Shown: piece by piece, positions 16,501 to 53,904 of the stretch | Layout of the letters: each line of letters starts with the position of its first letter | Position numbering within the stretch: the first letter of the stretch is position 1 | The notes under the pieces: model-generated | Seen by the model: the letters and a program-made list of their open reading frames with translations, nothing else | Database searches by the model: none | Told to the model about the DNA's origin: nothing | From: a virus | Taxonomy: Duplodnaviria > Caudoviricetes | IMG/VR virus record: IMGVR_UViG_3300033273_000282 | Coordinates: 128,001-192,000 of that record | DNA: 64,000 bases | Reading direction: 5' to 3' (one strand) | Position numbers and translations under genes: made by a program

Positions 16501-17626
16501 TCTGGGTGGTGTTCGTGACGTTGACCAAGATACCTACATCCTTACTGAGGTAAGTCCTGGATCTGACGAGGATACCTTCGAGTTCTACAACGCTGGTTTT
16601 AACAGCCTGAGCATTGATGTTAATACCATCACGCTTAAGACTGCCAGAACAATGGACGTTGAGGGTACACTAACCCTTAATGGAACAACAGGTTTGGATA
16701 CGCTGGATGTTCAGCGTAAGTCTACTTCTATTGTCAAAGTAAGAACAACCAAGGATCTGGAGATCACTGGTGGTTTCTATCTCAAGAACCAGTTGGCTGC
16801 TGGTACCATTGCTAGCTTTGATGATGGTACTCTGGGTGCCTCTCCTGGATCCTTCAACAGCGCAGGTAATGTATATACTCCATCTCAAACATTTAGTGCT
16901 GTTGCTGGTGTATCTGAGTTTGCTGGATCTGGATCCACATTCGATGTTGTAACTAACGCTAGTGGTGGCATTACTAGCATCAGCATTGTTAGTGGCGGTT
17001 TTGTTTATGAGGTTGGTGAAATCATCACCATCCCAGGTGGTTTGCTTGGTGGTGGCGTTGGTTCTGATGTTACCTTCACTGTTGCTAGCATCAGCAACGC
17101 TGACGTTGCTCACGGTAAAGTTAGTGCTCTCCAGAGTGAACTTCGCTTTAACCTGAACGGCGACAAGCAATTCCTCAGCCTTGATTCTAATCTTACAGAA
17201 GCTCGACTTAAAGTCAACAGAGACTATGCCACTGGTGGGCAGAACTATCTGACAGTTCTGGACTCCACAGCAAAATTTGTTGAACTCAATGATGCCAGAG
17301 TGGAGGGTGGTGAGATTACCTCCTTCTCCACAACCGTAACTATCACCCAGTTTGAGAAGACTCAGTATAAGGGTGCTAAGACTTTGATCACTCTTGAGAG
17401 TGATGATGGTAAGGTACACATGTTTGAAGTAACAACCATCTGTGCCGCTAGTGGGACTGTGGCTCACGCTACCGTCACAAACTCCATCACATCCGACAAT
17501 GATTTGATGGATGCTTCAGTATCGGTTGCTGGCAACAACGTCCAGATTTCCTTGGCAAAATCGTCGCAGGCAACCTCTTCTTCGACCTTTACAGGTAGAT
17601 ATACAACTACCAAGGTCAAGGTATAA
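10448..17626 (+). CDS. Giant tail-fibre-like protein (2392 aa): beta-helix, LamG domain, GxGY..P repeats, cupredoxin-like domain
   Basis: Fibre N-terminus MATRIKLKSS..VP...L..E.GLN; PFLTVAKAL..G.Y.E beta-helix start; LamG motifs FCVETWIY, WVHIAVAR, GHLDEIRVSKG (about 11762-12300); IRYNTTTSQFEGY motif. Confidence 0.8.
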   Translation: MATRIKLKSSVTASQVPTTSDLEDREVGLNITDKKLYVNNNGTIEEVANAEPNPASVTTAMLATDITNGPGATWFVAQNGTDVTTLGGGGANGKHPDTPFLTVAKALSVAQPGDSIEIAAGSYVETFPLTIPDGVHVRGSGIRQTEIKPSGGTNDLNAFVLNGDVTVEDLTIRDFFYNSTNDTGYGFVCANNWNSERSAYIQRVTILNKGSVTSGSDPYGFQQGDAGRGAKLDGSIANSAGIEAAVLFNECTFIVPNSVGLYLTNGIRVEWLNGFIYFADEGIKGVQGATGAFGTGRTRLRLSGTSGTFAAGEEIYQLEDQFQSGTYSRSGTTVTITRNAHGLVNGDRVYADFITGTATDNFYVVGGVTTNTFTLTDSASGSTSGNVTYKKADAYGLITLNDGSYIYLSGKGEGQFTTTVEGGKTAVPNADAQADNSVKKFGTGSLLLDGTGDYVNYASEADFGFGTANFCVETWIYANALSGTQTLLDFRGSAADIAPTLRLNGGTVEYAVGGTTQISGGSLTTGTWVHIAVARFNGSTKLFVAGNQVGSTYTDTNNYGAEKGLKIGAQYDNSTNYNGHLDEIRVSKGTARFTGNFTPSSAEYGTDIFTVLLLHFNANDGATIFIDSGSAIKDIRSNGGDSATGIALVDYNQFGAELRSIASANVYGNKGVVADGNGVKLLLTAHNFAYIGAGQDFTNDGSLAAQSNEVEELNGGRVFYSSTDQKGDFRVGNVFLVDQETGNVNFSSTSTSQEAASITLSDVTGTTNIFPAYIETGNLRLAGNTVSTTSGDIIFDPAGNQDVIYNAEVVFTEGVYYDQPKSANFKTDVPGNLGFYEGQNQRRGGFNGYGVQSDTNFYLTKEQVTTVTVDTEGDGYTGGAATIDADTNPPVVCTATLTLDLQDGALKEINVTAGGDNYVSDPTVGFSAPQDAGGSTPSVSAVLFSYGDVQAITVDDGGAGYAAAPGLVIDAPGGISFDTESDISGNAIQSANHPMRNGDRVVYSQNQGAENIGLTDGTTYFVVNAVNDSIGAGVSFQLSATQGGAVIPLTASASGSGESQAINGVQATATCTLSGDAIASVTITEPGSLYDRGAGVSVQEDGSQSPTTAATLTVYIGSPLSGFIINSRGSGYNAAPTVSFTNAAVDTYGAGAAATTTIGFPLAQEPAGLTVTNAGAGYAFAPQYKLSGGNPVTEAVLSPTLDKKKGNISSVGITGFGVGYSSAPTVTFYGGAGDGARLTVNVQSLDGTITNGGTGYVAGKYQSVELEYVSGGSGAPASNATADFTVAGWTGNVTNAGSGYIDGQYDGHVMYNVPAATYTVTVITNPGAAPPDNVYVINGTTQASLNFVEGNTYRFDQSDSSNSGHPLLAGREDGGTLSTDILAVSYGTPGDAGAFTDIIVKPGTAGEVLDYICSNHSNMGGSVTIGTGAAGNYGTGLSANVTVSGGQITAIESAAQGTDYAVGDTVSVNPYAMDTSGAGSGFLWTLAANDTTISVVDNISLTGGPYEVGMILSVDVQNVGGSGSNFTYTVSKAGFVKDVDVVQGSEGYGYTAGEILYPRIDPTTTGNAFQLTVGSTTTTPVWEFTHDGSIVNSAFNVAGTKDPTYDPGTLSLGSGVPKIVMETEFGNITTDGNLTVKGNLTLGDDAAVDTITVAASTTATGDTTQTGDFSLTGDMTIDGIFTQSGGASFLEELTGTIADGTAAAPSLALNTSPTTGLFWADTDIIGISNAGVETGRIGPAAYAVGTRFQVGSSSITASPLLDANPATNLVRIGSSASGLSISSTGLIEGNGTDANIGITLQPKGTGNVTVVGGTDKDFVLNDGTSLELFKVDLDSGDANLKGGLTLNSRLEIKDYTLTNQSLATASFGEVVSFDTSGTATLFTDGSFTNVNITATGTGKGTGGQVDVTVVGGTITTVVKAISGSAGRDYVLGDTITIDPAIIGTDPAQTITITDVSGAGIDLKPQARKNVRINGTGTFVVPVGGTNDRPVADDLYVGGIRYNTTTSQFEGYNGIDFVSLGGVRDVDQDTYILTEVSPGSDEDTFEFYNAGFNSLSIDVNTITLKTARTMDVEGTLTLNGTTGLDTLDVQRKSTSIVKVRTTKDLEITGGFYLKNQLAAGTIASFDDGTLGASPGSFNSAGNVYTPSQTFSAVAGVSEFAGSGSTFDVVTNASGGITSISIVSGGFVYEVGEIITIPGGLLGGGVGSDVTFTVASISNADVAHGKVSALQSELRFNLNGDKQFLSLDSNLTEARLKVNRDYATGGQNYLTVLDSTAKFVELNDARVEGGEITSFSTTVTITQFEKTQYKGAKTLITLESDDGKVHMFEVTTICAASGTVAHATVTNSITSDNDLMDASVSVAGNNVQISLAKSSQATSSSTFTGRYTTTKVKV

Positions 17627-40293: not shown

Positions 40294-40493
40294 CTATTGA
40301 AGAAATGATTAAAGATTTTGAAGAGCAGCGCGGTAAAATCCGTGGTGAAATCTCTGAGATCGAAGACGCACTGAAAGCCAGACAAGAACAACTCTTGCGT
40401 CTTGGTGGCGCAATCGAAGGTCTCCGTCTGGCTGAAAAGAATCTAGACGCCGCACCCGTTGCTACGGGTAACGTAGAGGTTGCCGCTGACTAA
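40290..40493 (+). CDS. Small coiled-coil hypothetical protein
   Basis: EQLLRLGGAIEGL motif seen in many cyanophage small ORFs; ATGA overlap with the upstream gene. Confidence 0.65.
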   Translation: MTIEEMIKDFEEQRGKIRGEISEIEDALKARQEQLLRLGGAIEGLRLAEKNLDAAPVATGNVEVAAD

Positions 40494-40765
40494 AGCAGTG
40501 CCTTGCTGCTGAGCATATCATGCTTCTCATCGAATTCAAATCTTTGAGGAGCATGAGTCCTATCACCAGCAACGATTAGGTAATATCTTTTACCGTAAAT
40601 ATTTTTGGTAATACCGATGGATCTGATTTCTCTTCCATCATATTTACCACCAACTTCGTAGGGGACAGTCTCTGGAGTACCGTCAAACTGTGGTTTGATA
40701 CGGGACCAAAGATGTTCCCTTTCTCTGTATTCGCCAGTAATTGGCTTTCTATCTCTTAACGACAT
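40490..40765 (-). CDS. Hypothetical protein (about 91 aa); the only credible minus-strand gene
   Basis: Fills an otherwise empty 320-nt gap. The ATG at 40765 avoids overlap with the next gene, and its stop overlaps the convergent stop at 40491-40493. Confidence 0.6.
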   Translation of the reverse strand: MSLRDRKPITGEYREREHLWSRIKPQFDGTPETVPYEVGGKYDGREIRSIGITKNIYGKRYYLIVAGDRTHAPQRFEFDEKHDMLSSKALL

Positions 40766-40770
40766 TAGGG

Positions 40771-40778
40771 TATAAATA
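40771..40778 (+). promoter_or_regulatory. T4 late promoter TATAAATA
   Basis: Exact consensus 34 nt upstream of the ATG at 40813. Confidence 0.75.
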
Positions 40779-40812
40779 CAAAAGAGGATAACACTGACCT
40801 GGACAGGCGTAC

Positions 40813-43800
40813 ATGGCAACCCTATTAGTTAAGGTCGCAGACTCATTTGACGTTAACGATGTAAAGGATACTCTCCTTAGTCAGCATGATTATTTAGAGT
40901 TTGTAAAGACACTTAGATCATTCCGTACCATCAGATTCAGCGTGGCAGACGAGAATGCTACTGCCGAGAATTTAGAAAGCGTACGTCTAACCGAGGGTCT
41001 CCAAGGAGCCACCTGGGACAGAGAGTTTCGTGTCACCGATTATGATGACGGTGGCGAAGTATTGAATGTAGAGTATGTAGGTGATGAAGTTGAAGAAACT
41101 GATGCTCAACTTCAAGACACCAAGAATACCAGAATTCTTTCTACTGGTTCTGGTGGTACTATCTACGTTCGTGTTCAGAACTTTCCTGCTGGTCCAAGAT
41201 ATACATTCTCAACTATCAGCGGTGGTCCTTTCAGCAGGATCAGTACCTTTACTGGCTTCCTCCAAGGCGGTACATATACTTTTGACCAGTCAGACTCCTC
41301 AAACGCAGGTCATCCTCTTAGACTCTCTATTACTCCAGACGGCACTTGGACTGCTGGTGGCGTTATTTACTCTACGGGTGTAACTGCTGCTGGTACTCCT
41401 GGACAGTCTGGTGCGTACACTAGAATTGTAATTAGTTCTAGTACACCTTCTGTTCTCTATTGGTATAACACCAACTCTTCCAACTACGGCAACTATAACG
41501 ATAGTCCTGCTCGTTTTGGTAAGTTATGTGTTCATGACTTTTGGCATCTTGACAGAATTACAAAACAGAATCGTTCTTACATGAACGGTGTCTACAATAG
41601 CCCAGAGGAAGGCGACGGATGCGACCTCTACGTTATTGATACTGGTGTTCGTGGTTCTTCTAGACCCACTGGTAACAACGCTGCGCTCCACCCAGAACTG
41701 TATGATCCCGACAACATCACCGACCTGAACGGTACTTCGGAGCAACAGTCTTATCGTGTATATGAAGTAACTGGATTCCAATCTGGTTATACCGTTGGTG
41801 GTAGTGCTAACTCTAACGAAGATGACCAGGGTCATGGTACCAACTGTGCTATCTGTGCCGCTGGTATTAAAGCAGGTGTGGCTCGAAAGACAAAGATCTA
41901 TGCCCTGAAGGCTTTCAACAGCGGTGGTAGTGGATCTCTTTCCGACATCATTGATGCTTATCAGGCAGTCCTTGATCACAACGATTCAGGTCACCCCAAC
42001 TACAAGGGCAACACAAGACCTGCTGTCATCAACGCTTCCTTTGGTCCCACAACTCCAAGCGGCGCTTTCCCTTACGTTGAGATTAACGAGAGCGGACAAG
42101 ATGCTGGCTTCGATCTGGAACTCTATGACGAAGTTGAAAAAATAATCGTTGATAATAACATTATCCTTGTCAGATCTGCTGGTAATGGATTTATCGACGC
42201 CTCTTCTAACTTCGCTGGTCCTCTCCAGACAAGATATGTTGCTGGCGCTAGATCCTCTGGTTTCTCTGACAATGATGTAAACTATCAGGACGTTAATATC
42301 AAGAGCATCGCGGTTGGTGCTTCTGATTACAACGACCGTTGGGCAGACTTCTCCAACTATGGTTCTGGTACAACCACAGTTGCTCCTGGTGCTCACCTAA
42401 CAATCCCAAGATACGACTGGACCGCTAACACTCCATACACCAGCACTGGTAACTATGGAAATATCAGTGGTACTTCGTTCTCTAGTCCCATCGTTGCTGG
42501 CATCATGTGTCAGTGGGTAACCTCTAATAACTATACTCTGGGAACTAGTGATGTACCTGGACTGGCTAAAACGTTCATCCGTACATCAGGTCCTGTTAGT
42601 GACATTTCCGCCGTTAGCAGTTCGGCATATCCAATCAACACTGCTACTGAATACAAACTACCATCTGATCCATTTGCTACAACGGCATCTAGCACTGCGC
42701 TGAAGATTTCTTTCCCACCAGCACAGTCTTCGGTATTCCTCAACAACATTAACAAGTATATCCAGTTCAGAGTTGGCGCTTCTTCTCTGACTGTTGGTGG
42801 TGTTAATATCAAGGATGAATCCTATCAGTGGCACCAGATTACAGCACAGGATCCTGTAAACAATACGATCACCATCACCCTTCAGAACGCTGCTACTGGC
42901 ACAGCGTCTGGTGGTGGATCAAATAATTTCATGTGTATCATTTCGGATACCCATGAATTTACCGATGGACCTGAGTTCAGCAATGTTACTCTCTATGCTG
43001 AACTTGATTCCGAGGAGGCTACTCATAGTGGTAGAGCCATCAACAACATCCCCGTACACACAGGGGTTGACTTTGATGCGTCTAGCACTAATGACGTGAT
43101 CTCCAAAGTAATGGGTATGTTCAACCCATTCATTCCTAAAACAATCTCTTGGTATACTAGCGCGGGAGATCTTACTAGCGGTCAAGGATATGACAACGGA
43201 GATTCCGTCAACGTACAACTTGGCATCCAAACTATTGTTTCATATGCTAGTGAGCCATTTACTGCTAGAGAATATAGTCTGACTGGTGATGACATCAGCA
43301 GCACTGGATTGACATTCAGCACTAGCTCTGGTGTTCTCTCTGGTACAGTAACTTCTAGTTATCAGGATCTCACATTCAATATCACAGTCACCGAAGTAAA
43401 GAGCGGTGAGTCTCGTAGTTATTCCTTCCAGACAAACGGAACGGGTGTTCTTGTATTCGTTACATCTCAGCCCGTTGACCAAGTTATAGAAGCTGGTGCT
43501 GGGACTAACGCTACGTTCGGTCCCCTTGGAGGATACTCTTCTGATGGTTCTACTGTTACTTATCAGTGGCAGATTTCCACAGACAATGGAAGCAACTGGT
43601 CCAACATCAGTGCGTTGGCTGGACACTCTGGAGAAACTACCGAAACTCTGACTGTTGATGATGATTTCGCATTCAACGGTTATCAATATCGTTGTATTCT
43701 AGACTCCAACACTGCGGTACAGACAACAACAACTAATGTTGCTAACCTAAGTCTGTACAGAGTTATCACAGTATCGACAGACCCACAACCACAAAGCGTT

Positions 43801-45954
43801 GTGGCTCCTGCTGCTGCTACCTTTACTATCGTGGCAGCGACTGCTGATAACGCAACTCTCGCTTATCAGTGGAAAAGATCTACCTCTCTGAACGGTACTT
43901 ACTCCGACATCGGTGGTGCTACTGCTCCCGCATATACAACACCAGCAACTACATACGCTAACGATAACAGTACATTCTTCAAGTGTAATATCACCGTTGA
44001 TGGTTCATCTTCTGTTCTATCTACAGCAGCAGAACTGACAGTCACTAGAACTATCGTTATCATCACTCAACCTGCTAACGATACTGGTTCTGTTGGTGGT
44101 ACTAGAACATTTAGCGTTGTTGCTAATACATCTGATAATGTTCCTGGTGATCTTACTTATCAATGGCAGTTGTCCATTGATGATGGATCTAACTGGTCTA
44201 ACATTACTGGTGCTACATCTGACAGTTATACAACTGGAACACTCACGGCTTCCGATGATGACTATCGTTTCAGAGTTCTGATTGCTGCTGCTGGTGCCCC
44301 AACAGTAACTTCCGATGCTGCGATCCTTCAGGTTGAAACTGTATCGATTGCGATCACACTCAACCCAACCCCACAAACAGTTAACGAGGGGCAGACTGCT
44401 ACGTTCACCGCTGATGGTAACGCAGTCAACAATAGCATCAATGCTCTGGTAAGTTCTTCGTTTGGTATTAGTCAATGGGATTCTCCTGCTGGCGGTGGTA
44501 ACCAATTTGAAGATCCAGAACAGCAGTTGCTCTGGGATAAGACCTGGGCTAAGATTGCTTCCGATCATACTCCATCTGTTACTTTCCAATGGCAAAGAAC
44601 TGACGATCAAGGAGTCAACTGGAGTGACATCAATGGAGCAACATCAAATAGTTACACTACACCTAATCTGACATACGCTGATGATCATGATGATCGTTAT
44701 CGTTGTAAGATTGATGCCGTAGGCGCAGAAGCTCCTGCCTTTACAAGTGCTGCTCTGCTGACTGTCTTCAGAACACACTCTGTACAAACTGAGCCATCCA
44801 ACCAGACTGGCAATGAAGGAGGCACGGCAACCTTTACCGTTGTCGGACAAACATCCAGTGGAACACAGACTTTCCAATGGCAGAGATCTGATGACACAGT
44901 TAACTATAGTGACATCCCAGGTGCTACAAGTTCGTCCTACACCACGCCAAATCTGGTGTTCGCTAATGACAACGAATCTAGATATCGTTGCGTACTTTCT
45001 CTGGTCGGTTCTCAAGCGCCAGTAACTTCTACCTATGCTGTACTGACTGTTAACAGGGTCATCACAATTGATACCCAACCAACAGGTCAGGCAGTCATTG
45101 AAGGCAACAGAGCCACATTTACTATTGCTGCTTCTATCACATCTGGTACGGTTAACTACCAGTGGCAGATTTCCACAGACAATGGTTCTAACTGGAATAA
45201 TATTTCTGGTGCTAATAGCACAAGTTATGAGACAGAGGTTCTTCCATTCCCAACTCTGAACAGAAAGTATCGTTGTGTACTTAGTAATAGTAATGCTATT
45301 ACAGTCACATCTGATGCTGCTGCTCTGACTGTTAATGAAGCGGAGTTTGTTGATCCTCCAACTAGCGTCAATGTCAATGTTGATGCTGATACTGGTTTGA
45401 CATTCAACAGACAACCAACGTTTAATGCTTCGGCTTTCAACTCACAGTATGCTGGATCTACTCATGCTGCTAGCTTCTGGCAGATCAAGAGAGTTGCTGA
45501 CAACGTTATCATCTATGATACTTCATCAGTTACTGTTCCTGATCTTTCCCAGGGTGATCCTGTCAACCTGACATCCTTTACAGTACCAGTCGCAGTTCTG
45601 GACTTTGATACTTTGTATCAAGTTGCTGTTAAATATAAGGATAACGCAGGACTGACTTCTCCTTACTCTATCCCAATTCAGTTCCAAACTCCTAAGGTAG
45701 ATCAACCAGAGATTCAAACTATTACTCCAGCGTTCAACCCAACTATCAACGTTATTACTCCTGCGATTAAAACTGGGTATCAGCATGTAACTTCTGATTG
45801 GCAGTTCTCTCAGTCCGATCAGTTCATTGACATTATTCACCAGTCTCTCGGTAACTCTACTAACCTTCTGTCTTATACTCTGCCAGGAGACGTAGTTGTA
45901 CTGCCACTGACAACATATTATGTTCGTGTTCGCTTCAATGTAGATGTAGTGTAA
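40813..45954 (+). CDS. Subtilisin-like S8 protease fused to six Ig-like repeats and FN3-like C-terminal domains (1713 aa)
   Basis: Triad Asp276 (YVIDTG), His341 (QGHGT), Ser555 (SGTSFSSP) and oxyanion Asn458 (SAGN). Repeats QP...ATF..YQWQ.S.D.G.W..I.GAT...Y..YRC. Confidence 0.88.
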   Translation: MATLLVKVADSFDVNDVKDTLLSQHDYLEFVKTLRSFRTIRFSVADENATAENLESVRLTEGLQGATWDREFRVTDYDDGGEVLNVEYVGDEVEETDAQLQDTKNTRILSTGSGGTIYVRVQNFPAGPRYTFSTISGGPFSRISTFTGFLQGGTYTFDQSDSSNAGHPLRLSITPDGTWTAGGVIYSTGVTAAGTPGQSGAYTRIVISSSTPSVLYWYNTNSSNYGNYNDSPARFGKLCVHDFWHLDRITKQNRSYMNGVYNSPEEGDGCDLYVIDTGVRGSSRPTGNNAALHPELYDPDNITDLNGTSEQQSYRVYEVTGFQSGYTVGGSANSNEDDQGHGTNCAICAAGIKAGVARKTKIYALKAFNSGGSGSLSDIIDAYQAVLDHNDSGHPNYKGNTRPAVINASFGPTTPSGAFPYVEINESGQDAGFDLELYDEVEKIIVDNNIILVRSAGNGFIDASSNFAGPLQTRYVAGARSSGFSDNDVNYQDVNIKSIAVGASDYNDRWADFSNYGSGTTTVAPGAHLTIPRYDWTANTPYTSTGNYGNISGTSFSSPIVAGIMCQWVTSNNYTLGTSDVPGLAKTFIRTSGPVSDISAVSSSAYPINTATEYKLPSDPFATTASSTALKISFPPAQSSVFLNNINKYIQFRVGASSLTVGGVNIKDESYQWHQITAQDPVNNTITITLQNAATGTASGGGSNNFMCIISDTHEFTDGPEFSNVTLYAELDSEEATHSGRAINNIPVHTGVDFDASSTNDVISKVMGMFNPFIPKTISWYTSAGDLTSGQGYDNGDSVNVQLGIQTIVSYASEPFTAREYSLTGDDISSTGLTFSTSSGVLSGTVTSSYQDLTFNITVTEVKSGESRSYSFQTNGTGVLVFVTSQPVDQVIEAGAGTNATFGPLGGYSSDGSTVTYQWQISTDNGSNWSNISALAGHSGETTETLTVDDDFAFNGYQYRCILDSNTAVQTTTTNVANLSLYRVITVSTDPQPQSVVAPAAATFTIVAATADNATLAYQWKRSTSLNGTYSDIGGATAPAYTTPATTYANDNSTFFKCNITVDGSSSVLSTAAELTVTRTIVIITQPANDTGSVGGTRTFSVVANTSDNVPGDLTYQWQLSIDDGSNWSNITGATSDSYTTGTLTASDDDYRFRVLIAAAGAPTVTSDAAILQVETVSIAITLNPTPQTVNEGQTATFTADGNAVNNSINALVSSSFGISQWDSPAGGGNQFEDPEQQLLWDKTWAKIASDHTPSVTFQWQRTDDQGVNWSDINGATSNSYTTPNLTYADDHDDRYRCKIDAVGAEAPAFTSAALLTVFRTHSVQTEPSNQTGNEGGTATFTVVGQTSSGTQTFQWQRSDDTVNYSDIPGATSSSYTTPNLVFANDNESRYRCVLSLVGSQAPVTSTYAVLTVNRVITIDTQPTGQAVIEGNRATFTIAASITSGTVNYQWQISTDNGSNWNNISGANSTSYETEVLPFPTLNRKYRCVLSNSNAITVTSDAAALTVNEAEFVDPPTSVNVNVDADTGLTFNRQPTFNASAFNSQYAGSTHAASFWQIKRVADNVIIYDTSSVTVPDLSQGDPVNLTSFTVPVAVLDFDTLYQVAVKYKDNAGLTSPYSIPIQFQTPKVDQPEIQTITPAFNPTINVITPAIKTGYQHVTSDWQFSQSDQFIDIIHQSLGNSTNLLSYTLPGDVVVLPLTTYYVRVRFNVDVV
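43564..43589 (+). repeat. 26-nt exact direct repeat, copy 1 (copy 2 at 45160-45185)
   Basis: cagtggcagatttccacagacaatgg encodes QWQISTDNG in Ig repeats 1 and 6. Confidence 0.85.
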
Positions 45955-46764
45955 ATGGCTAAACCAGGAACCAGACAACAACTTATCGATTATGCTCTGA
46001 GAAAACTGGGTGCCCCAGTTCTGGAGATTAACGTCGATGACGATCAGATCGATGATCTGGTGGATGATGCTATCCAGATGTACAACGAAAGAATGTACGA
46101 TGGATATATCAAAACCTATCTGAAGTATCAATTCGATCAGGCAACTATTGATGCCATGAAAACCAACAGCACCACAACGGTGACTCAAGTTGGTGGTAAG
46201 GCAACTGACTTCTTAGAAGCCAATAACTATATTACAGTTCCCGATTACGTTACCAGCGTCATCAAAATCTTTGACTTTACGTCGAAGAATACTACAAACC
46301 TTTTTGATGTCCGCTATCAGTGGAGACTCAATGATCTGTGGGATCTTACACAGACTGAGATCTTGACCTATGAGATGGTCAACCGTAGATTGGAAGATAT
46401 CTACTTCCTGCTGGAAGGGCAAAAACAAGTTAGATTTGACATGAGAGGTCAACGTCTATTCATGGATATTGACTTCCAAGAGGATGTGGCAGCAGGAGAT
46501 CACTTGGTCTTTGAATGCTACAGAGCTCTGGACCCAGCAGATCATGCTGGTATCTTTAACGATCTCTGGCTCAAGAGATATGTCACTGCTCTGATTAAGA
46601 GGCAGTGGGGTCAGAACCTGATCAAGTTCCAAGGTGCTCAACTCCCTGGTGGTATCACTCTGAATGGGAGAGAATTGTTTGATGATGGGAACAATGAGGT
46701 GAACAAACTAGAAGATGAAATGCTCAGTCGTTATGAAATGCCACCCCTGGATATGATCGGATGA
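45955..46764 (+). CDS. gp13: Neck protein gp13
   Basis: LIDYALRKLGAPVLEINVDDDQIDD; WLKRYVTALIKRQWGQNLIKFQGAQLPGGITLNG. Confidence 0.95.
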   Translation: MAKPGTRQQLIDYALRKLGAPVLEINVDDDQIDDLVDDAIQMYNERMYDGYIKTYLKYQFDQATIDAMKTNSTTTVTQVGGKATDFLEANNYITVPDYVTSVIKIFDFTSKNTTNLFDVRYQWRLNDLWDLTQTEILTYEMVNRRLEDIYFLLEGQKQVRFDMRGQRLFMDIDFQEDVAAGDHLVFECYRALDPADHAGIFNDLWLKRYVTALIKRQWGQNLIKFQGAQLPGGITLNGRELFDDGNNEVNKLEDEMLSRYEMPPLDMIG

Positions 46765-48092
46765 GAAACGTTTTCTTCACTCACGGAACTCGTAACGAAC
46801 AGTTTCTCCAACAAGGACTGGTCGAAGAGTACATCAAAATGTTTGGGATGGATATACTTTACATCCCAAGACAACTTACTCAAAAAGATGGCGTCTTTAA
46901 TGAAGAGGTGTCATCTGAGTTTGATGACTCGTATCTTATCGAGGCTTACTTGGAGAACGCCGAAGGCTTCCAAGGTGGTGGAGATCTGTTGACTAAATTT
47001 GGGATCAGGCAGAACGATGAGATAACAATGGTTATTTCTCAGCAAAGATTCTCTGATCTTATCTCTCAGTTCCTTCTTCTGGATACTGATGTAGAACTTG
47101 GGGAGAGACCACAGGAAGGAGATCTTATTTACTTCCCACTGGCAGGCAACTATTTTGAGATCAAGTTTGTAGAACACGAAGAGCCATTCTACCAACTTGG
47201 CAAGAACTATACTTACAAACTTAAGTGCGAACTGTTCGAGTACAGCGACGAGCAGGGAGACATCTTCATTGGAGACGAAGATCTCGTCGATACTGGATAC
47301 ACTATCAAATACTACTACCTTACTTCTCAAGGTGTCAGTGCTATTGGTGTACCAACACTTCTTAATGGAGGAATCTCTTCGCCAGTTCTCACTGAAGAAG
47401 GTAAGAACTATAACTACACTCCAACTGTCACAGTGAATGGTGATGGCACTGGAGCCACAGTTCGTGCTGATATGATTACAGTTTCCGTTCAGGGTTCCAC
47501 ACCACTGAAGGATGCTGTACTGAAACCAACTGTGGTACAAGGTAAACTTACCAAGTTGGAAATTGTAGATGGTGGCGAAGGATATGATGCTGCTAGATCT
47601 AGTATCGCATTCTCAACCCCACCTTTCGGTGGACTTACACCCGTCGCCAAACCAACGTTTGATACCAATGGTAAACTGGTCAATGTTGAAATTACAAACC
47701 AAGGTAAGGGTTATACTTCTGTATCCAAACTGGTAGTAGAGAATCCTGGCACTGGATACACCACAGCATCACTCGCTATCCAACCAGTATCTCCTGGACT
47801 TACTGGTCAATTCAAGATTGGTGAAAGTGTCACTGGTGGTAGCACTGGCAACCAAGCAGTTCTCGCAGATTGGGATTCTAAGGAAGGTTGGCTTAAACTC
47901 AAAGCACCTACTGGAGACTTTAGAATCGATGAAACACTCATGGGTTCTACCTCTGGTGCTCAGATTGTAATCAACTCCTTTGATCCAATCGATTCTACAG
48001 ATGATAAATATTATGATAATGTTGAGTTTGAACTTGAAGCAGACGACATTTTAGACTTTACTGAGTCTAACCCATTCGGCATAGCAACATAA
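46761..48092 (+). CDS. gp14: Neck protein gp14 with internal insertion
   Basis: EQ.L..LVEEYIKMFG, PQEGDLIYFP, FEIKFVEHEEPFYQLGK, ILDFTESNPFG. Confidence 0.93.
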   Translation: MRNVFFTHGTRNEQFLQQGLVEEYIKMFGMDILYIPRQLTQKDGVFNEEVSSEFDDSYLIEAYLENAEGFQGGGDLLTKFGIRQNDEITMVISQQRFSDLISQFLLLDTDVELGERPQEGDLIYFPLAGNYFEIKFVEHEEPFYQLGKNYTYKLKCELFEYSDEQGDIFIGDEDLVDTGYTIKYYYLTSQGVSAIGVPTLLNGGISSPVLTEEGKNYNYTPTVTVNGDGTGATVRADMITVSVQGSTPLKDAVLKPTVVQGKLTKLEIVDGGEGYDAARSSIAFSTPPFGGLTPVAKPTFDTNGKLVNVEITNQGKGYTSVSKLVVENPGTGYTTASLAIQPVSPGLTGQFKIGESVTGGSTGNQAVLADWDSKEGWLKLKAPTGDFRIDETLMGSTSGAQIVINSFDPIDSTDDKYYDNVEFELEADDILDFTESNPFGIAT

Positions 48093-48093
48093 G

Positions 48094-49101
48094 ATGTTAA
48101 ACACTGGATACACTTATAACAAGATCATCCGTAAGTGCGTTATCGCTTTCGGTACGATGTTCAATAATATCGAGGTTCGCAAAGAAAACCCCGATGGATC
48201 AACGTACCAGAAAATGAAAGTGCCTCTGGCTTATGGACCTAAGCAGAAGTTTCTTGCCAGAATTGAACAGCAGCCAGATCTTAACAAGAAAGTTTCCATC
48301 ACTCTGCCACGCATCTCCTTTGAGATTACTGGCATTAACTATGATGGCACTCGAAAGTTAAGTCCGATCACCTTAAACCTTAAGGCGGATGGTAACAATG
48401 CGGTTAGAAAGGTATACACCCCAGTACCATATAACATCGAGTTTAGTCTTTCTGTTTTATCCAAGACTAACGATGAGGCTCTGGAAATCATGGAGCAAAT
48501 CCTCCCATTCTTCCAACCCTCTTATAACGTTACGATCAAACTTATTGAAGACCTCAATGAGTTCCGTGATGTGCCTATCGTTCTTAATGGCATATCATAC
48601 TCTGATGAATACGAAGGTGACTTTACTCAGAGAAAACTTACAACGATTGACTTCACGTTTTCGATGAAGACATATCTGTTTGGTCCTTCTCAGACTGGCG
48701 CACCCATTAAGAAAGCTTCTGTGGATCTCAAGATGGGAACCAACAGAGAGTTGGCACCACGCAGAGTTACCTATCAAGTTACTCCTGCCGCAATCAGAGA
48801 TGGAGATCTCGACGGCACTTCTACTCTCATGGCTGATCTTACTAAGACAGCAACCACAATTGAAGTACAAGACTCCTCTGTATTCACTATCGGTGAATTC
48901 ATCGAAGTTGACAATGAAGTGATGAAGGTTGCCACACTTGTAAATGCTACAAGCATTACAGTTGTCCGTGGTCAGAAAGGAACCAGTAAAGCACAGCATT
49001 TGGCTGGTGCTTCTATCGATCTGATCAACTCTGCTGACGACGCATTGCTTGAAGCGGGTGATGACTTTGGTTTCAATGAACTGACGAGTTTCTATGGATA
49101 A
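48094..49101 (+). CDS. gp15: Tail terminator / sheath stabiliser gp15
   Basis: FGTMFNNI, KVPLAYGPKQKFLAR, LPRISFE, PVPYNI, EQILPFFQP. Confidence 0.95.
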   Translation: MLNTGYTYNKIIRKCVIAFGTMFNNIEVRKENPDGSTYQKMKVPLAYGPKQKFLARIEQQPDLNKKVSITLPRISFEITGINYDGTRKLSPITLNLKADGNNAVRKVYTPVPYNIEFSLSVLSKTNDEALEIMEQILPFFQPSYNVTIKLIEDLNEFRDVPIVLNGISYSDEYEGDFTQRKLTTIDFTFSMKTYLFGPSQTGAPIKKASVDLKMGTNRELAPRRVTYQVTPAAIRDGDLDGTSTLMADLTKTATTIEVQDSSVFTIGEFIEVDNEVMKVATLVNATSITVVRGQKGTSKAQHLAGASIDLINSADDALLEAGDDFGFNELTSFYG

Positions 49102-50506: not shown

Positions 50507-50771
50507 AGTTCCAGAAGATCGCATCACGCTCCTTGAAGATCTTCGAGATGAAGCACTAGATAATCCTGATTGGTACCGCAGTTATGTTGCGGAGCATCCT
50601 CCTATTTCGGAGGCTCCCATCACGTTTGATTCTTTGCTTGGAAAATTCTGCGTTGTCTTTGATGGTCATACGATGTTCTTCAATGAGTTTGACGCAGCAG
50701 AGGACTGGTACCAGCTAAATACCCATAGAAAGCATGTAGCCAGCACAGCAGATGTCTCTGACAATTCGTAA
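50499..50771 (+). CDS. Hypothetical protein (90 aa)
   Basis: Overlap-coupled ORF inside a continuous + strand gene run. Confidence 0.5.
   Translation: MSEVPEDRITLLEDLRDEALDNPDWYRSYVAEHPPISEAPITFDSLLGKFCVVFDGHTMFFNEFDAAEDWYQLNTHRKHVASTADVSDNS
50715..50721 (+). promoter_or_regulatory. Late promoter-like CTAAATA
   Basis: 30 nt upstream of the fibre ATG at 50752. Confidence 0.5.
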
Positions 50772-53700
50772 GTTACCTGAGGAAGCCGCAAATCTCCTCA
50801 GACCACCATCAAGTATTTTCCCTGCTCAGATTGGGGACGTTGTTCTGGAAGCGACTTCCAACACCGTCCTTACGATGAAGTTGAAGGGAAGTGATGGTGT
50901 TGTCAGAAACTTTGACGTTGGTGGTGGTGCTTCCTCCATCGGTACTGAATATGATATTAGGATGGTTTCCACAACTGGTGGAGCCATTTTTAGATTGACA
51001 TCATCGTACTCTGTTCTTGATGATATCACCTTTGCGGAGACTGCTAACCAAGTTAGAGTCTACTATACTAACGATGACACCGTTACGTTTGGTCTTGCGA
51101 ATGATGTAACCATTCCAAACGATCTGGTAGTCACAGGTAATCTTACAGTCAATGGCTCGACCACGACTGTGAATTCGACGACTGTCACAATTGATGACAA
51201 GACATTTGAACTAGGTTCTACCTCTAGCCCGACTGATGCTGGAGCCGATGGTGGCGGGATTGTTCTTAAAGGAACCACAGATAAAAGTATTCTTTGGTCT
51301 AACGTCAATGACGCTTGGACCTTCAATCAGCACATCTATCCTGATGTGGATAGCACTTGGGACTTGGGTTCCAACCTAATCCGCTACGCTAATGTATACG
51401 CTGATGCTGCTAACATCACAGCTATCACAGGAGCACTAACAGGAAATGCGGATACTGCCACGGCGCTTCAAACATCTCGCAATATCAGTGGCGTATCTTT
51501 CGATGGCACTGCTGATATCACGCTTGTCACGGACAACGTACAAGAAAGCGGCACCCCGACCAACATCTATTTCACAGATGCCAGAGCTCGTGCTGCCGTA
51601 TCGGCAACCGATGCTGGTGGTGACGGATCGTTCGCCTACGACTCGGGTACAGGTATCTTTACATACACTGGTCCCAGCGCAGCAGAAACCCGTGCTCATT
51701 TCTCGGGTGGCACTGGAGTCACTATCAACTCTGGAGTAGTTGCTATCGGTCAAGCCGTTGCGACAACTGATAGCGTAACCTTTGCTAGTATCAGTGGTCC
51801 TCTGACTGGTAATGCTTCTACCGCAACGGCTCTTCAGACTGCCAGAACAATCAACGGTATCTCTTTCAATGGTACCGCCAATATCACTCTGGATCTAGAT
51901 GACATTGCGGAAGCCCAAGCATCCCCAACTAATCTTTTCTTCACTAACGAAAGAGTTGATGACCGCGTAGCGGTTCTCCTTCAAGGTGGCACGGGCATCA
52001 ATAAAACCTACGATGATGCCAACGATCAACTGACATTCTCTGTTGATTTCTCTGAGTTTGATTCCGATTCTATTGTAGAAGGTAGCACAAATGTCTTCTT
52101 CACCAATGCTAGAGCTCGTAGCGCAATCTCGCTCGTAGACAATGGCGGAGACGGTTCTCTTACTTACAATTCTACTTCTGGTCAGTTTACTTATACTGGT
52201 CCCAGCGCTGCCGAAGTCCGTGCCCACATTTCTGTCACTGATCTTGGTGGTGATGGATCTCTCGCTTATGATTCTGCTACTGGCGTCATCACCTATACTG
52301 GTGGCTCAGCTGCTGAGACACGTCAACACCTTAGTGGTGGAACTGGCGTCACGTATTCATCTGTTAGTGGTGAGATTTCAATCGGTCAGGACGTTGCTAC
52401 CAACTCCAACGTAACCTTCGCTAACATTACATCTGGTGGTTCTGGTCCTAGATCTCTGCTTCTCCAGAATACAGACAACGTTGGTACAGTAGATACTGCT
52501 GCGAACATTACATTTAAGCATAGTGGTATTGACTTTACCTCCGATTCTATTGTTGCTGATGGCAATGATCTGGGTCACATCGACTTTAGAAACAACGGTG
52601 GCTCTATTGTTGCTCAGTTTGGTTTCCGTAAGCGCAACACCGCAACATCCAAGGTTGCCTTTGAGATCGATACAAACAACGACGGAACTCCAGAGTTTGA
52701 AGTTTCCGATAGCAACATCAACTTCTCGTCCACTAACATCGGCATTACAGCAGGTGCTGGATATACAGTAACCACTGAGAATTCCACAGTTGATTACTCT
52801 GATGATGCTGATGGATATGGTCCTAACTTTATCCTCAGAAGAAACAGCACATCTGCTGCTGTTGATGACCAACTCGGTACTATCCAGTTCATTGGTAGAG
52901 ACGCTGCCAACACTGTGGATCTGGAGTACGGAAGAATTAAGACTGACATTCACCTGACTGCTGCTGGCTCTGAGAGGGGTCTGATGAGACTTCAGGCAAT
53001 GGATGCTGGTTCTCTGTTTGACACCTTAGTCCTCAGAGGTCAACTGGTCGGTCTGGGTATTGATGAGCCTGCTGGTCAACTCCACATCAAAGGTAGTGAC
53101 ACGACTGACCAGGTTATTATTGAGAACACAACCAACTCTTCTACTACCGCCCCTGACCTTGTTCTCTACAAGTCGGGTACTATCAGTATAGGACACCAGC
53201 CTGGTCGTATTGACTTCCGTGGCAGAAACGCTGCCGACAACGCCAACGTTAACTACGGTGGTATCTTCGCTGAGGTTGAGTCTACCACCAATGGTCAAGA
53301 AGGTGGTGCCATTAAGTTCCTCACCTCTCAGTTTGGTACTCTCACCGAAGCCGCTCGATTCAACTCCAGTGGTAACCTCGTTCTTCAGGCAGAAAAGGGT
53401 ATTGATTTCAGTAACCAGACTGCTCTCCTTGGCGTTTCTTACCAAGTTCTTGATCATTATGAAGAGGGTTCTTACGACTGTACCCCATACTTTGCTAACA
53501 CAAATAGAGCAGGTATGTCGAACACCTCTACTGGATACTACACCAAGATTGGTAGAATGGTTCATGTGCATGCCAAGATGGTCGTTAACATCCTGGATAA
53601 CACATTGATTGGTGGTGAACTGAGATTCCCACTTCCATTCCAACCATCTGTATCTTGTAGTAACAATGCTGTTCAGCGTGTGATCATGGAGAATGATTCG

Positions 53701-53904
53701 GGTCACTTCCTGAATACTGCTCAAGCAATCTTCCTTGACGACTCTAGAGATATGATTGTTACTCATGCTGGCTCTCAGAATCAGTACGTTCTTCTCCAAG
53801 GTTTGAACGCTGACTATCAGAGAGGATCCCTAATTACTTCCAGCAACTGTGCCATTGGTCTTGGTACTGTATTCATTGACTTTACTTATAGAGCCGCTGC
53901 TTAA
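50752..53904 (+). CDS. Tail-fibre-like protein (1050 aa) in the g16-g17 interval
   Basis: VTGNLTVNGSTTTVNSTTVTIDDK, LTGNA.TAT.LQT.R.I.G.SF.GTA.ITL repeats and C-terminal YEEG.Y..YTKIGR.VHV..LPF fibre module. Confidence 0.8.
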   Translation: MSLTIRKLPEEAANLLRPPSSIFPAQIGDVVLEATSNTVLTMKLKGSDGVVRNFDVGGGASSIGTEYDIRMVSTTGGAIFRLTSSYSVLDDITFAETANQVRVYYTNDDTVTFGLANDVTIPNDLVVTGNLTVNGSTTTVNSTTVTIDDKTFELGSTSSPTDAGADGGGIVLKGTTDKSILWSNVNDAWTFNQHIYPDVDSTWDLGSNLIRYANVYADAANITAITGALTGNADTATALQTSRNISGVSFDGTADITLVTDNVQESGTPTNIYFTDARARAAVSATDAGGDGSFAYDSGTGIFTYTGPSAAETRAHFSGGTGVTINSGVVAIGQAVATTDSVTFASISGPLTGNASTATALQTARTINGISFNGTANITLDLDDIAEAQASPTNLFFTNERVDDRVAVLLQGGTGINKTYDDANDQLTFSVDFSEFDSDSIVEGSTNVFFTNARARSAISLVDNGGDGSLTYNSTSGQFTYTGPSAAEVRAHISVTDLGGDGSLAYDSATGVITYTGGSAAETRQHLSGGTGVTYSSVSGEISIGQDVATNSNVTFANITSGGSGPRSLLLQNTDNVGTVDTAANITFKHSGIDFTSDSIVADGNDLGHIDFRNNGGSIVAQFGFRKRNTATSKVAFEIDTNNDGTPEFEVSDSNINFSSTNIGITAGAGYTVTTENSTVDYSDDADGYGPNFILRRNSTSAAVDDQLGTIQFIGRDAANTVDLEYGRIKTDIHLTAAGSERGLMRLQAMDAGSLFDTLVLRGQLVGLGIDEPAGQLHIKGSDTTDQVIIENTTNSSTTAPDLVLYKSGTISIGHQPGRIDFRGRNAADNANVNYGGIFAEVESTTNGQEGGAIKFLTSQFGTLTEAARFNSSGNLVLQAEKGIDFSNQTALLGVSYQVLDHYEEGSYDCTPYFANTNRAGMSNTSTGYYTKIGRMVHVHAKMVVNILDNTLIGGELRFPLPFQPSVSCSNNAVQRVIMENDSGHFLNTAQAIFLDDSRDMIVTHAGSQNQYVLLQGLNADYQRGSLITSSNCAIGLGTVFIDFTYRAAA

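Follow-up and report, generated by a model that had tools for sequence, protein, structure and literature searches.

Does a cyanophage display a protease on the surface of its particle? This question is raised by a gene found in a 64,000-nucleotide (nt) stretch of viral DNA (positions 128,001 to 192,000 of the IMG/VR record IMGVR_UViG_3300033273_000282, hereafter the window), which lies directly before a homologue of the neck protein gene gp13 and encodes a subtilisin-type (S8) protease followed by a chain of immunoglobulin (Ig)-like domains. The initial annotation had proposed that this product, here called S8-Ig, is a protease carried on a neck or head appendage of the virion. On balance, we judge S8-Ig to be probably, though by no means securely, a virion-surface accessory protein of a T4-like marine cyanophage, in which a stalk carries a working subtilisin-type protease at its far end. 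Display is plausible because of the late timing of expression, the junction with gp13, the surface-type Ig repeats and the analogy with the protein that fills the same slot in other cyanophages. The gene and the parts of its product are the following (window coordinates, strand and basis):

40813..45954, + strand: S8-Ig gene (P0001), member of T4-GC 519 / phrog_27200
40813..41031, + strand: I9-like propeptide fold, residues 1-73 (model), followed by an acidic low-confidence linker, residues 74-106
41113..41532, + strand: beta-sandwich domain, residues 101-240 (model, ~110-240), with what looks like a relic type-1 copper site
41533..42612, + strand: proteinase-K-like S8 catalytic domain, residues 241-600 (Pfam, PDB sequence matches and fold)
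42613..43182, + strand: two beta domains, residues 601-790 (model)
43183..43464, + strand: He_PIG-like putative Ig domain, residues 791-884 (weak Pfam match, all-beta model)
43465..45342, + strand: six Ig-like repeats, residues 885-1510 (sequence repeats with a YQWQ-type core)
45343..45951, + strand: two FN3-like domains, residues 1511-1713 (model, Foldseek)

The open reading frame (ORF) at 40813-45954 (+) codes for 1713 amino acids (aa) without an internal stop, and it is present as a single copy in the complete 200,309-bp uncultured IMG/VR viral genome that contains the window. The protein matched phrog_27200 over its full length (E = 0, 1929 bits) and is about 51% identical, over 99% of its length, to 'hypothetical proteins' of the phages P-HM1, P-HM2 and MED4-213 (T4-GC 519). 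Metagenomic data yielded more than 300 related protein clusters, and relatives are encoded on 218 stretches of IMG/VR contigs, while among about 500 cyanophage records the gene occurs only in P-HM1, P-HM2 and MED4-213; a megablast search gave no close DNA relatives among isolates. When S8-Ig was compared with two close relatives, the ratio of nonsynonymous to synonymous substitution rates (dN/dS) was about 0.1 overall and between 0.02 and 0.15 for the individual domains, and, since the overall value is so low, the ORF is not a product of chance. Judged by these comparisons, this is a protein family widespread among marine cyanophages, and purifying selection acts on each of its domains. Conservation is highest in the S8 domain and the FN3 pair (60-65% identity; 65% in the S8 domain and the last FN3 domain) and lowest in the propeptide (31% identity). 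PHM1_104, PHM2_106 and the MED4-213 orthologue, all three annotated as 'hypothetical protein', are full-length homologues with the same domain order and the same invariant active site, lie in the same slot before gp13 and are preceded by the same small partner gene; their length exceeds that of the window protein by about 115-120 residues. No paper on the function of the family was found in the literature; the sequence family had already been catalogued and is functionally uncharacterised.

The first element of the proposal, a complete protease, is well represented in the sequence. The Pfam family Peptidase_S8 (PF00082) was matched at residues 274-574 with 88.5 bits against a cut-off of 21.8. 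The catalytic triad named in the initial annotation (D276, H341 and S555) and the oxyanion residue N458 lie in the canonical DTG, HGT, GTSFS and SAGN contexts, and the four residues are invariant in 121 of 121 homologues. With this active site, the protease looks catalytically competent; purifying selection acts on it as well. Aqualysin and proteinase K were the PDB sequence matches of the domain, and the nearest cellular subtilases are about 30% identical to S8-Ig. An AlphaFold2 model of the N-terminal half (residues 1-900, built from 33 sequences, mean predicted local distance difference test score (pLDDT) of 63) was aligned in a VIA fold search with pro-subtilisin E 3whi_B (Z 22.1, 315 residues aligned, root-mean-square deviation (rmsd) 3.4) and with proteinase K 8rse_A (Z 19.9, 248 aligned, rmsd 3.0). 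Foldseek concurred on the subtilisin fold, with E values of about 1e-8 to 1e-9.

A prodomain-like segment at the N-terminus had also been reported, and the model agrees with it. Residues 1-70 were modelled as a beta-alpha-beta-beta-alpha-beta domain (pLDDT 73-90), and the VIA alignments to 3whi, PCSK9 and ProN-Tk-SP (3afg) begin at residue 1 of the model, with Z of 20-22 for the pro-forms. Neither a Pfam I9 match nor a PDB sequence match was obtained for this domain. Thus, in fold and docking, although without an I9 profile match, the N-terminal domain looks like a subtilase propeptide. The absence of a signal peptide, noted at the outset, was borne out by reading the sequence by eye, no predictor being used, and residues 1-8 form the first strand of the N-terminal domain in the model. 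With the S8A subtilases that have an I9 propeptide (proteinase K, aqualysin-1, keratinase 5wsl, 3whi and Tk-SP), S8-Ig shares the triad, the oxyanion Asn, the fold and an N-terminal domain docked as in their pro-forms, at an identity of about 20-28%. In contrast to them, it has no signal peptide, its propeptide is separated from the catalytic domain by a 33-residue acidic linker and a 140-residue sandwich domain, its protease is followed by about 1100 residues of beta-sandwich domains, and it is encoded in a phage late module.

The location of the gene provides the second line of evidence. Two elements flank it on the same strand:

40771..40778, + strand: T4-type late-promoter-like motif TATAAATA, 34 nt 5' of the S8-Ig ATG
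45955..46764, + strand: gp13 neck protein gene (phrog_211), starting at the base after the S8-Ig stop

The initial annotation had given the gene its own TATAAATA motif and a stop directly abutting the gp13 start, and both statements were correct: the octamer was found upstream of the ATG as listed, and the TAA at 45952-45954 is followed by the gp13 ATG at 45955. The window holds four copies of the octamer (at 17622, 29051, 40771 and 60838), every one on the + strand and 20-60 nt upstream of a + strand ORF start (17650, 29117, 40813 and 60890, respectively). Their placement is that expected for T4-type late promoters; their number by itself is not significant, since four or more copies were obtained in 13 of 100 shuffles. 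In all of the 60+ loci fetched with downstream sequence, gp13 starts 2-16 nt after the S8-Ig gene and is followed by gp14. In the infection time course of P-HM2, the orthologue PHM2_106 was assigned to the late cluster E together with g13 (PMC5082946 Table S2). The late-type motif of the gene and the late expression of the P-HM2 orthologue support its assignment to the late module. On the 3' side the order is gp13, gp14, gp15, gp16, a fibre-like ORF, gp17 and gp18. On the upstream side are 2-oxoglutarate (2OG) oxygenases, small ORFs and a 91-aa ORF on the minus strand.

Other cyanophages have a virion protein encoded at the position before gp13. Directly before this gene, S-SM1 and eight other cyanomyoviruses have a 6-8 kb gene annotated as 'YadA domain, structural protein' and marked as having proteomic data (PMC3037559 File S1); this slot protein is T4-GC 402 (SSM1_109 in S-SM1). 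Both S8-Ig and T4-GC 402 are thus products of giant late genes in the same slot, although their sequences are unrelated, T4-GC 402 has no protease domain and it is T4-GC 402 that has virion proteomic data. A full T4-GC 402 orthologue was not found in the window genome, where two other ORFs contain short similar patches. The best patches of similarity to the S-SM1 YadA protein in this genome are located in a 1050-aa fibre-like ORF (50752-53904, +) between gp16 and gp17.

The stalk itself resembles known particle-displayed proteins. Phage Ig domains are typical surface-display modules, and the initial annotation had counted a putative-Ig module, six Ig-like repeats and two FN3-like C-terminal domains, all of which were recovered. 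The He_PIG match extends over residues 831-873 with an E value of 5e-4, under the gathering score. The YQWQ-type repeats at ~885-1510, the fourth of which holds an insertion of about 35 residues, matched the Ig part of the Hoc-like Bas63 protein Hex-Dec (9ncf_S) with an E value of 9e-24; further matches, to the head, virion and tail protein families phrog_613 (E 3e-45, over six stretches), phrog_25852 and phrog_3995, agree with Ig domains of the surface-display type. The C-terminal 298 residues were modelled as one Ig and two FN3-like domains with a pLDDT of 89.8, and the Foldseek matches of this model were generic ones, to Ig-FN3-FN3 arrays. Like Hoc of T4 and Hex-Dec of Bas63 (9NCF), S8-Ig has tandem Ig repeats, with sequence similarity to Hex-Dec, and it is likewise acidic, a property noted for Hoc and Hex-Dec in the Bas63 paper (PMC12609058). 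Hex-Dec sits on the capsid hexamers, and neither it nor Hoc, each with 3-4 Ig domains, carries an enzyme (PMC12609058), whereas the S8-Ig chain ends in FN3-like domains and bears an enzyme head. Moreover, the match starts at about Hex-Dec chain residue 96, past its N-terminal capsid-binding domain, for which no counterpart was matched in S8-Ig. Between the protease and the Ig chain, the model of residues ~610-712 (42640-42948) was similar to a beta-barrel of the phage phi92 endosialidase 4hiz_A (Z 9.9, 85 aligned, rmsd 2.3), and this beta domain may be a glycan-binding module.

In T4, the gene immediately before g13 is wac, which encodes fibritin, the neck whiskers. The initial annotation had placed S8-Ig at the fibritin position, and this description holds for the gene order and fails for the protein: the position before gene 13 is the only point in common with T4 fibritin. 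No fibritin family was present among the Pfam and PHROG matches of S8-Ig, and no coiled coil was found, as both models are all-beta outside the S8 domain, with helices only in the propeptide, the S8 domain and a few short turns. The stretch between the two models consists of Ig repeats by sequence, and the C-terminus is FN3-like and has no foldon. Judged by its sequence and its models, S8-Ig is not a fibritin homologue. The proposal of a neck appendage rested on gene order only, and gene order does not settle a neck location because a relative in phage S-BM3 lies elsewhere, among fibre genes. Regarding the neck itself, the gp14 (46761-48092, +, 443 aa) and gp15 (48094-49101, +, 335 aa) homologues are longer than their S-SM1 counterparts. 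Since their extra segments (gp14 ~190-340 and gp15 ~242-316) match repeats that also occur in baseplate, fibre and virion structural proteins, these neck proteins seem to be decorated themselves.

A small gene accompanies the S8-Ig gene:

40490..40765, - strand: 91-aa partner gene (P0122, phrog_26228, T4-GC 518), divergent from the S8-Ig gene, with a 47-nt spacer

The spacer contains the late motif TATAAATA of the opposite S8-Ig gene, and no sigma-70-like promoter for the inverted 91-aa gene was found on the minus strand near 40766-40900. Nearly all loci that extend upstream of the S8-Ig gene encode a homologue of the 91-aa protein just before it and, among isolates, the small gene occurs only in P-HM1, P-HM2 and MED4-213, exactly the carriers of the full-length protease gene. 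The reverse test gave the same association: of 80 loci retrieved through the small protein, 76 have the start of an S8-Ig gene beside it, either 40-190 nt away or at ~1.3 kb with a single intervening gene. Of the remaining four loci, three stop within 140 nt of the small gene and one has ~500 nt of poorly conserved sequence. The orientation is co-directional in most clades, P-HM1, P-HM2 and MED4-213 included, while it is inverted (head to head) in the window clade. The protein has 15 invariant residues, including Glu-His, His and His-Asp. It had no match in Pfam or PADLOC, nothing below an E value of 0.5 in a PDB profile search and no useful match in the Atlas. In P-HM2, its orthologue PHM2_105 belongs to a middle expression cluster (PMC5082946 Table S2). 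Because of this co-inheritance and earlier expression, the 91-aa partner may restrain the protease or help it to fold. A complex prediction with S8-Ig residues 1-612, the FN3 pair and the 91-aa protein scored 0.00 in both runs, made without controls, and speaks neither for nor against binding.

Several observations weigh against virion display. No virion proteome, micrograph or structure of any carrier of the gene was found in the literature, and the virion data of Sullivan 2010 cover only S-SM1, S-PM2 and Syn9; a literature search on cyanophage S8 peptidases and virion-associated subtilisin-like enzymes returned nothing relevant. No recognisable virion-binding domain was found, as the Hex-Dec match comprises the Ig part only. 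The FN3 pair was considered as a dedicated anchor and rejected, since the C-terminal module is a common repeat, present in 1916 protein clusters with up to 20 copies per protein; it was not found in the other large structural-module ORFs of the window that were screened. The 2OG oxygenase genes immediately upstream are non-structural, so that the neighbourhood is not decisive. Finally, the mean pLDDT of the N-terminal model is just 63 and several loops of its catalytic domain have low confidence.

Most of these points would suit a late, non-structural protease, which would remain in the cytoplasm until lysis and then act from inside on host envelope proteins, or on debris, with the Ig and FN3 domains binding substrates. 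Such an enzyme could aid lysis, release nutrients or strip receptors from dead cells to spare the progeny. The lack of a signal peptide by reading would keep it in the cell until lysis, there is neither virion evidence nor a dedicated anchor domain among our findings, its upstream neighbours are non-structural, and a partner made earlier, in the middle phase, fits an inhibitor that shields the infected cell. However, the link to gp13 is tight and universal, late expression is shared with g13, other cyanophages encode a virion protein in this slot, and Ig repeats of this kind on a stalk of ~1100 residues, itself under purifying selection, are typical of proteins displayed on particles. This is the likeliest of the alternatives, and we nevertheless regard it as unlikely.

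The relative in S-BM3 is informative on how the protein is built. SBM3_00202 (L002:1316-9262, 2648 aa) is annotated as 'peptidase S8', a name that seems to have been carried over from the T4-GC 519 label: Pfam detected no S8 domain in it and found a YHYH domain (PF14240, E 3e-37) instead. The Ig chain and the FN3 pair are common to both proteins up to the last residues (36% identity over 824 residues). The S-BM3 gene differs from the window gene in its location, among tail-fibre genes and not before gp13, and no homologue of the 91-aa partner gene was found in S-BM3. Since S-BM3 exchanges the head for YHYH and keeps the Ig-FN3 tail, the family looks like a shared Ig-FN3 stalk with exchangeable working heads, as far as can be read from the sequences.

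This arrangement also bears on the possibility that the protease acts during assembly only, either by processing the giant fibre or baseplate proteins whose genes lie upstream or as a self-cleaving intramolecular chaperone, leaving at most the Ig-FN3 part on the mature particle. Self-cleaving S74 chaperone domains are established in endosialidases and some phage tail fibres, giant fibre genes and genes for fibre assembly are part of the same late region, and in subtilases the domain that the I9-like N-terminal domain resembles is a folding chaperone. Nevertheless, S74 modules are C-terminal, whereas the S8 domain lies towards the N-terminus behind a propeptide of its own. Conservation along the protein is also highest in the S8 domain and lowest in the propeptide. 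The non-protease head of S-BM3 fits an exchangeable working head better, and phages with similar giant fibres lack the gene, as just three of the ~500 cyanophage records carry it. A role restricted to assembly is, therefore, rather improbable.

The sandwich domain between propeptide and protease, the two beta domains at ~610-790 and the paired small gene had been missed in the initial annotation. This second domain was modelled as a beta-sandwich with a pLDDT of about 60-88 and is the sole basic domain (isoelectric point (pI) 9.4) of a protein that is acidic as a whole (pI 4.4). A His followed by Cys-x2-His-x2-Met is the ligand pattern of type-1 (blue) copper proteins. In the alignment of 121 homologues, H167 is invariant, and Cys-x2-His-x2-Met is found at 219/222/225 in 64 of them; P-HM1 and P-HM2 likewise keep all four ligands. 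The other 57, the window protein included, have Asn, Ser/Asn/Tyr and Tyr at these positions; with N219, S222 and Y225, the window protein has kept H167 only and so differs from the P-HM orthologues, whose second domain preserves the pattern. Because of the ligand motif and the sandwich fold, the domain looks cupredoxin-like, with three of its four copper ligands lost in this clade. Pfam recognised residues 101-240 neither in the window protein nor in five relatives that bear the ligands, a profile of residues 1-240 gave chance-level matches only among PDB sequences, and the Atlas feature search with the domain returned only unnamed viral clusters, all below 0.9. The VIA list of the whole model was filled by subtilases and a few small-domain matches, so that a cupredoxin could not appear in it and its absence there is not a negative result.

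Longer relatives have plastocyanin-like PF00127 domains inserted after residues 656 or 789 (at 875-965 in P0016 and at 689-769 in P0004, both metagenome homologues). These inserts sit between the protease and the Ig chain. We asked if the PF00127 tags on some homologues correspond to the second domain, and this was rejected, as the tags mark the inserts. Other length differences among relatives are due to an extra segment of ~125-135 residues near residue 1265-1269. By its sequence, the window protein is a copper-less version of a recurrent theme that joins a protease to blue-copper domains. A last alternative, in which the S8 domain is a binding module whose propeptide stays bound after one self-cleavage as in PCSK9, so that the protein would be an adhesin only, is very improbable: PCSK9, prodomain included, is among the best structural matches, and the decayed copper site of this clade shows that modules are kept despite lost chemistry, but all 121 homologues retain the oxyanion Asn and the complete GTSFS and HGT contexts unchanged, a strictness that a single self-cleavage does not obviously demand, and the fast evolution of the propeptide (31% identity) fits a disposable chaperone better than a permanent partner.

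Returning to virion display, the following course of events can be proposed. The S8-Ig gene would be transcribed late, as seen for the P-HM2 orthologue, and, because no signal peptide is present, the protein would be made in the cytoplasm as a zymogen, in keeping with the propeptide fold. Self-processing would occur in the acidic linker after the propeptide, and the conserved C-terminal FN3 pair may attach the protein to the head, neck or tail of the particle. A stalk of 11 beta-sandwich domains of ~4 nm each would hold the presumably active protease some tens of nm out, where it might cleave proteins at or near the surface of the host cell, much as virion depolymerases act on glycans. The targets suggested in the initial annotation, namely the S-layer, organic matrix and fibres to be matured, are likewise guesses. 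The 91-aa partner, made earlier, might inhibit the protease or assist its folding. In its full form, this proposal can only be put forward tentatively: that virions of a widespread group of marine cyanophages bear an active Ig-stalk protease which begins infection by cleaving proteins of the host surface (S-layer, pili, porins or giant cell-surface proteins), a protein-directed 'depolymerase' restrained or folded by a dedicated 91-aa partner that is made earlier, and that the sister-clade protein also binds copper, is possible rather than probable.

S8-Ig combines known kinds, namely subtilases with beta-sandwich tails and Ig-decorated phage surface proteins. What is new is the gp13 junction, the late P-HM2 orthologue, the slot analogy, the pairing with the 91-aa gene, the copper-relic domain and the non-fibritin status. 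The virion-borne enzymes known so far mostly attack sugars, such as those of capsules, O-antigen and peptidoglycan and, if the proposal is true, a general protease displayed on the particle would represent a different phage route through the cell surface. It would also matter for the way in which the ocean's most abundant phototrophs, Prochlorococcus and Synechococcus, gain and lose resistance through changes in their surface proteins. Since the family is common and has cultured carriers that infect Prochlorococcus MED4 (P-HM1, P-HM2 and MED4-213), the idea is testable with ordinary methods. The small gene that is co-inherited and expressed earlier offers a second handle, as a candidate inhibitor or chaperone of no known family.

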